Shown piece after piece: positions 40,674 to 41,430 of a DNA stretch of 64,000 nucleotides. The DNA lies in the IMG/VR virus record IMGVR_UViG_3300045988_122866, positions 26,982 through 90,981 of that record, one strand, 5' to 3'. The DNA comes from a virus. The notes under the pieces are model-generated. The model was given only the letters and a program-made list of their open reading frames with translations, was not told the DNA's origin and did no database searches. The position numbers and the translations under genes were made by a program. Each line of letters starts with the position of its first letter. Within the stretch, counting starts at the first letter, position 1.

Positions 40674-40716
40674 AAGGGAGACATTCTTAACTGAATGTCT
40701 CCCTTATTTTTTTTTA
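40674..40716. terminator. Bidirectional rho-independent terminator between the convergent holin and LytTR regulator genes
   Basis: Stem AAGGGAGACATTC / GAATGTCTCCCTT followed by a T11 run. Confidence 0.7.
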
Positions 40717-41430
40717 TCTAAATGGATTTTTCCATCGTCGATTAATTTCTTCATAGCCTTTTTTAGGAAAGTATAAAACTTCACCATTTTTAAAAGTTAA
40801 ATTATCTTTATTCATTATTTTAATTTGATTTAAATTAATAATTAAACTTGGCGGAATAAAGACAAAATCTGGATGATAAACTAAAGTTCCTATATAATTT
40901 TCAAAAGAAGTTTTTAAAGTTTTACTATTTAGAATTTCGTTCTCTAAATGACAACACAAATTTCGTTTTTGAATATCAGCATATAATACTTTACCCAAAT
41001 CAATTTTTACTTCTCCGTTAGGAGTGTCTAAATATTTATATTCACGTCTTTTTTCTTCTCTAACTTCATGTAAAATAGAAAAAATTTTTTCTTTATTAAC
41101 AGGTTTTTTGATGAAGTTAAAGGCCTTTACTTCATAAGAAGCTACTCCATAATTTATTTGAGAGGAAACAAAAATTATTTTTCCAATATACCCATTTGTT
41201 CTTAAAAGATGAGCTATTTCAATACCATCCATTTTTTTGAATGTAATTCCTAAAAAGATTGCATCATAATCAATATTGGAGTTAATTAATTTTTCAGGAT
41301 CAGTAAATTTATATACATATCCTGGTAAATTAAAATCTTTAAAATACTGATTTATTATTTCTTCCAATGAGTCATTTTGCTAATCGCTATTGTCGCAAAC
41401 ACCTACGATAAAAATTTTAATCACCTTCAT
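40714..41430 (-). CDS. LytTR-family response-regulator-like transcription factor with an atypical receiver domain, about 238 aa
   Basis: The C-terminal half matches the LytTR DNA-binding domain (…FVFIPPSLIINLNQI…NGEVLYFPKKG). The N-terminal half is a CheY-like receiver, but the phospho-acceptor position reads FLGI instead of LDI, and the acidic pair is VGVCDN. The true start is ATG 41428-41430, reached by reading through one TAG upstream of tool ORF 40714-41367. Confidence 0.7.

Follow-up and report, generated by a model that had tools for sequence, protein, structure and literature searches.

A predicted pseudo-receiver LytTR-like regulator gene with an early in-frame TAG in a TAG-recoded gut phage

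The regulator gene and its two domains

The virus record IMGVR_UViG_3300045988_122866 of IMG/VR was analysed over a stretch of 64,000 nucleotides (nt; positions 26,982 to 90,981 of the record, hereafter the window). On the minus strand of the window, between a holin gene and a conserved six-gene cassette, lies a gene for a putative two-domain transcriptional regulator (hereafter the regulator). Its frame opens with an ATG at 41430, closes with a TAA at 40714 and is interrupted only once, by a single TAG. An original prediction, made from the letters alone, had described the interval 40714-41430 as a LytTR-family regulator with a degenerate receiver; these coordinates, including the part ahead of the TAG, hold as an ATG-to-TAA frame, but the TAG at codon 17 and the recoding of the genome had been overlooked. 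The features of the gene are as follows.

40714-41430, minus strand: regulator gene, 238 codons with TAG read as Gln, or 239 counting the stop
41056-41412, minus strand: pseudo-receiver (REC) domain, residues ~7-125, placed by PF00072, the MrkE alignment, column counts and an AlphaFold2 model
41380-41382, minus strand (CTA on the plus strand): in-frame TAG, codon 17, where helix alpha1 makes its first turn, just past strand beta1 and the CDNSD pocket
40726-41040, minus strand: divergent LytTR-like domain, residues ~131-235

The translation starts MKVIKIFIVGVCDNSD, resumes after the TAG with QNDSLEEI... and ends in ...RRWKNPFR; with the TAG read as Gln, the stretch around codon 17 is ...CDNSDQQNDSLEEI.... 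The regulator is found at 85-98% identity in 18 IMG/VR loci, and a public protein 98% identical to it (P0001), which stands for 574 sequences, was called with Q at the TAG. The codon-17 TAG is present in 17/17 distinct related sequences that cover the N-terminus. Positional orthologues at 85%, 69% (L001), 47% (L276) and 36% (L279) identity represent four further lineages; the 47% orthologue corresponds to protein P0122, with 219 sequences on contigs of ~200 kb, and the 36% orthologue to P0125.

The N-terminal half was expected to be receiver-like, and a profile search bore this out: PF00072 is matched with 37.1 bits, above its gathering score of 30.2, and among NCBIfam models the domain is nearest to LytR, BtsR and AgrA. 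An AlphaFold2 model of P0001 (mean predicted local distance difference test score, pLDDT, 84.4; predicted TM-score, pTM, 0.79) has five strand-helix units, strand beta1 spanning residues 7-12 and helix alpha1 residues 16-32, and CheY-like chains match it at target-normalised TM-scores of 0.8-0.86. The regulator sequence DAIFLGI aligns with DAIFLDI of the MrkE receiver (PDB 2qv0), the best solved relative by sequence, and the codon at 41248-41250 specifies Gly61 in place of the phospho-acceptor Asp. Active-site columns were counted in 64 bacterial LytTR-type regulators, 20-28% identical to the phage protein and some of them annotated Lachnospiraceae.

Position 61 (acceptor): Asp in 64/64 bacterial regulators, Gly in the phage protein
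Position 13 (first pocket residue): Asp in 64/64, Asp in the phage protein
Position 14 (second pocket residue): Asp in 63/64, Asn in the phage protein
Position 89 (conserved Ser/Thr): Ser in 57 and Thr in 7, Ser in the phage protein
Position 109 (conserved Lys): Lys in 64/64, Lys in the phage protein

The acceptor position is Gly in 5/5 phage lineages. At the level of sequence, these residues show the domain to be a pseudo-receiver as defined by a review (PMC12632262), and a phosphoryl group cannot be taken up at the usual Asp position. Since the acceptor is lost, the regulator is predicted to act independently of phosphorylation, and on both counts the original prediction is supported. Its degenerate acidic pocket proves to be only half degenerate: the second Asp is replaced by Asn, whereas Asp13, Ser89 and Lys109 are kept.

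The C-terminal half, by contrast, is not the clear LytTR domain that had been described. PF04397 scores 18.2 bits (E 0.003) on the regulator and 20.6 bits on P0001, below its gathering score of 22.6. Homology to LytTR is nevertheless well supported by profiles, intermediates and the structure model, and the domain appears to be a divergent member of the family. A profile of the phage C-terminal domains aligned with the LytTR part of the bacterial profile with 91 columns in register (hhalign E 1.2e-4, probability 55%). Intermediate homologues emerged when cluster representatives were searched exhaustively, and 14/19 sampled members of this subfamily match PF04397, with a best E of 7e-15. The top Foldseek match of the model is full-length ComE (4cbv, E 1.6e-10), and the isolated LytTR domain 3d6w is matched at E 2e-6. 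The phage motifs FIPPSLIINL...LYFPK replace the RIHQS and ISE.R of the nearest annotated bacterial LytTR regulators, and the consensus of the wider subfamily contains PSLLINL, LYFPK and CYHL.DG, with some members retaining the acidic pocket and the acceptor Asp. A loss of DNA binding through replacement of RIHQS and SE.R was considered and dropped, PSLLINL and LYFPK being present also in subfamily members with intact receivers.

A Cys-Cys pair within the NLCCHLEN sequence of this domain (40955-40960, residues 158-159) is shared by the three closest lineages, and one of its two residues is widespread in the subfamily (LCYHL). Redox-switched pseudo-receiver regulators are known, RitR being an example (PMC12632262).

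A recoded genome and an early TAG

Open reading frames (ORFs) of 100 codons or more add up to 40.6 kb in the window under the standard code and to 69.0 kb with TAG as sense, when plus-strand ORFs of 2836, 2582 and 1149 codons emerge; removal of TGA instead adds little. TAG is dense in structural genes, with ~1-5% TAG codons in virion genes. Among replication genes, DnaE has 0/1337 TAG codons, the DnaB-like gene 0/412 and NrdD 2/745; a primase-like gene is also without TAG, and a RecJ-like gene contains it. When TAG codons of the window were aligned with the 69% relative (~70% protein identity), 22 of 52 stood opposite CAA/CAG, 10 opposite TAG and 20 opposite other codons, and CAA/CAG codons of the window faced TAG in 15 cases. 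One NrdD TAG aligns to a Gln of PDB 9d3x, and two related loci (L011 and L022) carry TAG at the codon for Gln27 of the window regulator. By these alignments TAG is glutamine across the window phage, the assignment of a code-15 recoded phage. Because the genome is recoded, the in-frame TAG of the regulator is not a defect. The distribution of TAG agrees with that reported for recoded gut phages (Borges et al., bioRxiv 10.1101/2021.08.26.457843).

Once TAG is sense, two giant late genes are apparent, at 6099-14606 (2835 codons, 88 TAG) and 28664-36409 (2581 codons, 27 TAG); the orthologue of the latter has a weak LRR_5 match in related loci. Standard-code gene calling splits up most of the left 40 kb of the window.

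Related IMG/VR contigs reach 197 kb. In one of them (IMGVR_UViG_3300045988_118370, 197,006 bp) the gene order continues from one end of the contig to the other, pointing to a genome of about that size that is circular or circularly permuted. ARAGORN and Rfam detected no tRNA at all in the window, and ~105 kb of this related 197-kb contig, reached by walking into related contigs four times, likewise contained none.

What would be made from the regulator gene under the standard code? The translation-table-11 ORF spans only 40714-41367, starts with TTG and gives a 217-amino-acid (aa) fragment without strand beta1. Because beta1 (residues 7-12) is upstream of the TAG, the full-length regulator requires read-through; the model shows that an intact protein, with its central strand, needs translation through the TAG. 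Standard-code calling truncates the regulator (217 aa here, 216 aa in the public P0122 cluster) and so hides beta1 and the acidic pocket.

The identity of the start codon is uncertain. In place of the ATG at 41430, the 85% relative has TTG and the 69% relative (L001, region 6535-6560) TGG; alternative starts in the window are a GTG at 41424 and an ATT at 41415, with a Shine-Dalgarno-like GAAGGTGAT ahead of the ATT. In the 47% relative (L276 7940-8000), TAA TGA lie just 5' and are followed by a strong ribosome-binding site (AAGGAGGAG), and the codons available before the TAG are ATT, ATC and ATA, with no ATG, GTG or TTG. Initiation at a near-cognate codon (AUU/AUA) is possible.

Neighbouring genes and the divergent promoter region

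The regulator is always located between the holin and the conserved cassette, in the window and in the four further lineages. The features on its two sides are listed here.

40259-40669, plus strand: holin, last gene of the late operon, with one in-frame TAG at 40517-40519
40668-40711, both strands: bidirectional intrinsic terminator between the holin stop and the regulator stop
41483-41511, minus strand: likely regulator promoter, with -35 TTTACA, a 17-nt spacer and an extended -10 TGTATAAT
41524-41532, plus strand: box 3, AAAGTGTCA, which on the minus strand overlaps a TTGACA -35-like hexamer
41551-41559, plus strand: box 2, TAAGTGAAA
41569-41581, plus strand: box 1, AAAAAGTGTCAGT, the best operator candidate
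41613-41655: inverted repeat (16 bp, perfect; 11-nt loop) that overlaps TATAAT and lies ahead of the ribosome-binding site of the first cassette gene
41674-44605, plus strand: six-gene cassette, divergent from the regulator and its putative target

The holin matches phrog_13712 (E 3.5e-37); a Pfam search of it gave no match and its identity comes from PHROG only. The terminator has a 19-bp stem with A and T runs at its flanks, and the folding energies of its two strands are -27.9 and -28.8 kcal/mol (z-scores -8 and -9). Both the convergence on the holin and the shared terminator had been proposed from the letters and are borne out. Being downstream of the holin and convergent with it, the regulator is not placed to control the holin promoter, and control of the holin is excluded by this geometry. 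No endolysin was recognised beside the holin. A protein with a Phage_lysozyme2 domain and a signal-peptide-like N-terminus is encoded without TAG at 58151-58990 on the minus strand, in the replication arm and far from the holin.

The order NrdD, NrdG, dUTPase, cassette, regulator, holin and tail genes is common to the window and the 69%, 47% and 36% relatives. The flanking genes are 60-87% identical in diverged genomes, compared with 47% and 36% for the regulator, which on these identities is among the fastest-evolving genes there. Loci with losses were also found. A deletion in L019 (near 10011) corresponds to window positions 41370-44003 and one in L024 (near 10026) to 40869-42487, each taking the 5' end of the regulator plus part of the cassette, and L023 (10001-10720) has a frameshift between the regulator's two domains. 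In two more distant loci, L163 (5205-9400) and L164, the cassette is inverted and directly convergent on the holin, and there is no regulator. Because of these losses and the regulator-free cassettes, the regulator is best described, from gene content, as an accessory gene of one sub-lineage and the cassette as older. L163 additionally encodes a 200-aa serine recombinase of the resolvase/invertase type just upstream of the holin, and has a ~33-nt tandem repeat (TTCGACAAATTGCT.(C/T)GCTCAGCCC.CTGA) upstream of the cassette.

The cassette behaves like a conserved late module. No gene was seen with a higher TAG density than its first, which has 8 TAG in 148 codons. The fourth gene (43311-43733, 140 aa) has 4,719 homologues at E<0.001 in a metagenome protein collection; the best 120 are 71-99% identical, and most of the homologues come from 100-200-kb contigs. 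The model of the fourth protein (pLDDT 83.6) resembles BclA and F-BclA in their C-terminal domains, as well as BxpB and ExsFA of the exosporium; the fold is a C1q/TNF-like jelly roll known also from phage fibre tips. PDB, Pfam and NCBIfam sequence searches with this gene were empty, and the BclA/ExsF-like fold comes from structure comparison alone. The sixth and last gene encodes a small HExxH protein. The third gene (42408-43289) encodes 293 aa with a membrane segment at the N-terminus, a stretch rich in Gly and Asn, a CCC motif and a C-terminus rich in Cys (GCGYGSGCGCNS), and matches phrog_16490, of unknown function.

Beyond these genes, the left arm of the window encodes virion proteins and the right arm replication and nucleotide metabolism: DnaB-like, RecJ-like, SF1 helicase, DnaE, guanylate kinase, NrdD/NrdG and dUTPase. 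The DnaE-type DNA polymerase III alpha (50646-54659, minus strand, 1337 aa, no TAG) has its best deposited-phage matches in the SPbeta/phi3T group of Bacillus phages, at ~39% identity. No close relatives were found among GenBank phages, which gave only short DNA matches and protein matches at 20-27% identity, and an exact-protein look-up of two window proteins found no match.

Regulator and cassette are separated by 243 nt, the largest intergenic region in the window. The -35 and -10 of the regulator promoter are invariant in six aligned sequences (four of the window clade and the 85% and 69% relatives), and the 47% lineage shares only the -10 region, as TGGTATAAT. Repeats had been noted in this region, and AAAGTGTCA does occur in two exact copies (41524 and 41571), the only ones in 64 kb. 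The count by itself is weak, as 0.51 copies are expected by chance and at least 2 occurred in 8/100 shuffles; the significance of the element comes from its conservation in relatives and not from copy number. Three AAGTG cores are present in each of the window, the 85% and the 69% relatives, and their starts are 27 and 20-21 nt apart. The AAGTG core of box 1 starts 42 nt before TATAAT (41614 in the window) in 3/3 lineages measured, across intervening DNA that has diverged, and the core nearest the cassette, AAAAAGTGT, persists in the 47% lineage and, in part, in the 36% lineage. On the cassette side a TTATATA is conserved and there is no well-spaced -35, as might be expected of an activator-dependent promoter. 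A hairpin follows TTATATA at the same place in 5/5 lineages with differing stem sequences (GAAAGG/CCTTTC, GGGAAT/ATTCC, GGAAGAA/TTCTTC and GGAGATA/TATCTC); these hairpins were judged by single-sequence folds, the arms being out of register in the MAFFT alignment.

Possible roles and comparison with known systems

The interpretation placed first, held with about even confidence, is that the regulator is a phosphorylation-independent, pseudo-receiver LytTR-like transcription factor of a ~197-kb gut phage, and that its synthesis depends on TAG suppression. In a standard-code host it would be made only after a TAG-suppressing state had been established, as a late, code-state-dependent factor. Between the divergent promoters it is predicted to bind one or more of the conserved AAAAAGTGT boxes and could thereby control its own promoter, the TAG-rich cassette or both; the holin promoter would lie outside its direct control. 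As the full protein would arise only upon read-through, a phage-internal late regulator is more likely than a sensor of host signals. The original prediction had proposed that late or lysis gene expression could be coupled to host signalling, and this finds no support: the acceptor Asp is absent and no cognate histidine kinase was found in the parts of the window scanned. Proteins of 39.1-50 kb and 54.7-64 kb gave no HisKA or HATPase match, the large left-arm ORFs being scanned in part; DnaE was judged by its orthologue in L006, which holds polymerase families only. The gene tables of four related loci likewise list no kinase.

Several observations weigh against this interpretation. A temporal code switch is assumed, and neither the window nor the ~105 kb of the related contig yielded a suppressor tRNA. 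The early TAG occupies one of two positions (alignment column 17 or 20) in lineages that are not independent, and it could be an ordinary Gln codon. The deletions and the frameshift in three contigs indicate either that the regulator is dispensable or that the assemblies are faulty. DNA binding is suggested indirectly by the conserved AAGTG boxes with their 20-21-nt spacing, and the box is confined to one intergenic region of the window; one-mismatch matches elsewhere are no more than chance would give (19 against 18.4 expected). The regulator promoter is near-consensus and would need no activator. The alignment behind the AlphaFold2 model is dominated by genuine LytTR regulators and biases it to that fold. 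Residues invariant in the nearest annotated LytTR regulators are changed (R191F, H193P, Q194P, S222P and R225G), changes that are common to the wider subfamily, including members with intact receivers. We take His169, Asn201 and Arg233 to be the base-contacting residues of AgrA, and in a by-eye mapping the last two stand opposite Pro and Gly here.

The most serious alternative is an ordinary phage pseudo-receiver LytTR transcription factor whose early TAG is a Gln codon inherited by chance, with translation ungated. This is possible but less credible than gated synthesis. TAG and CAA/CAG swap freely between orthologues, TAGs occur even in replication genes (NrdD and the RecJ-like gene), and the regulator has just one TAG in 238 codons; for the window and the 69% relative alone, the background chance of retention is ~0.19. 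Set against this, a TAG falls within codons 14-20 in 5/5 lineages, down to 36% identity, at column 17 in the window, 85% and 69% lineages and at column 20 in the 47% and 36% lineages. As a background, TAG codons of the window are retained in 10/52, 3/21 and 2/33 cases in the 69%, 47% and 36% genomes, or 6-19%, and the holin TAG is retained in 0 of these three diverged relatives. The two neighbouring positions hint at re-gain rather than simple inheritance. A rough probability that the early TAG arose by chance is 0.001-0.03, dependent on the treatment of independence and of the three-codon shift, and the pattern is suggestive.

A bolder version of gated synthesis, which we consider rather unlikely, makes the regulator a reporter of the phage's genetic-code state, with the amount of protein tracking suppressor activity. 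A weak, possibly non-AUG start would act as a first throttle and the TAG a few codons on as a second, and the regulator would turn on the TAG-rich cassette, including the BclA/ExsF-fold gene, and so couple late transcription to the code switch. If true, this would be a regulatory logic so far undescribed for recoded phages.

Distinctly unlikely is a decoy or dominant-negative role, in which the regulator would heterodimerise with a host LytTR-type regulator or occupy a host kinase or promoters, blunting a quorum-sensing, bacteriocin or autolysis circuit of the host rather than acting through its own DNA sites. The receiver keeps its fold but cannot be phosphorylated, no phage kinase was found in the proteins scanned, and the nearest bacterial relatives are LytR/AlgR-type regulators of Lachnospiraceae; phages with agrBCD but without agrA are known to interfere in such circuits (PMC11945551). 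An identity of 20-28% to any bacterial relative is poor for a mimic, however, and the AgrA, LytR and BtsR equivalog models of NCBIfam are not approached (27-38 bits against cut-offs of 246-400). These values also speak against the mimicry of a host quorum-sensing regulator that had been suggested earlier. Moreover, the regulator evolves faster than its neighbours, and a conserved box with fixed spacing lies upstream of its own gene.

A decaying pseudogene, or the 217-aa standard-code ORF as the real product, is very improbable: the table-11 stop in frame and the damage in three related contigs would fit decay, but TAG is sense genome-wide, the 16 codons 5' of the TAG keep beta1 and the 'CD' pattern in all lineages, the pairwise ratio of nonsynonymous to synonymous substitution (dN/dS) is 0.13-0.20 out to dS ~1, which by codon comparison shows purifying selection, and the TTG lacks a ribosome-binding site and falls within helix alpha1, so that the beta1-less product is predicted to be unable to form the receiver fold.

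How does the regulator compare with characterised systems? LytTR response regulators such as AgrA, ComE, LytR and BtsR have the same domain order and size (238 aa). The candidate site, with short direct repeats ~20-21 nt apart and 5' of a promoter with a good -10, has a geometry typical of the LytTR family. The AgrA and ComE boxes are unlike the AAGTG repeat of the window, and the regulator further differs from these proteins in that it has no acceptor Asp, no kinase was found for it, its LytTR match is below the Pfam threshold, it is phage-borne and its gene is interrupted by TAG. Pseudo-receivers make up several percent of all receiver domains and are often phosphorylation-independent (PMC12632262). 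In HP1043/HsrA and RitR, as here, the receiver fold is kept and active-site residues are missing (PMC12632262, PMC8345958), but these proteins have OmpR-type or other output domains in place of a LytTR-like one; the pseudo-receiver review mentions no LytTR output and no phage example.

LytTR proteins have been noted in Pseudomonas phages (PMC11945551), and the Clostridioides phage LIBA2945 (MF547663), a ~130-kb phage of a Clostridia host using the standard code, encodes a 'two-component response regulator' with REC plus LytTR of the same length as the window regulator. In contrast to the latter, its acceptor Asp (FMDI) and acidic pocket (CEDEE) are intact, and it has a canonical FFRCHKS. A literature search for phage-encoded LytTR response regulators found nothing comparable. 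The regulator matches phrog_8810, a family to which no function is assigned, over its full length (E 2.9e-26).

Stop-codon recoding has been proposed as a timer for the late and lysis genes of gut phages (Borges et al., bioRxiv 10.1101/2021.08.26.457843). TAG as Gln, TAG-dense structural genes and replication genes with little or no TAG are shared with the window, where the holin too is recoded, and the idea of an in-frame stop as a block to premature expression is common to both, but the subject of that study was structural and lysis proteins and integrases, as opposed to a transcription factor. By term search, neither this preprint, which does use the words 'regulator' and 'transcription', nor PMC10607447 mentions LytTR or response regulators, and the recoding literature searched ties no transcription factor to the stop-codon switch. 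If the TAG is a real gate, the regulator would offer a testable link between translation-level recoding and transcription-level timing in abundant uncultured phages. Phage LytTR regulators, pseudo-receivers and recoding as a late-gene timer are each already known separately; what is new is their combination, in a conserved pseudo-receiver LytTR family of ~200-kb TAG-recoded gut phages, with an early in-frame TAG and a fixed position on the holin side.

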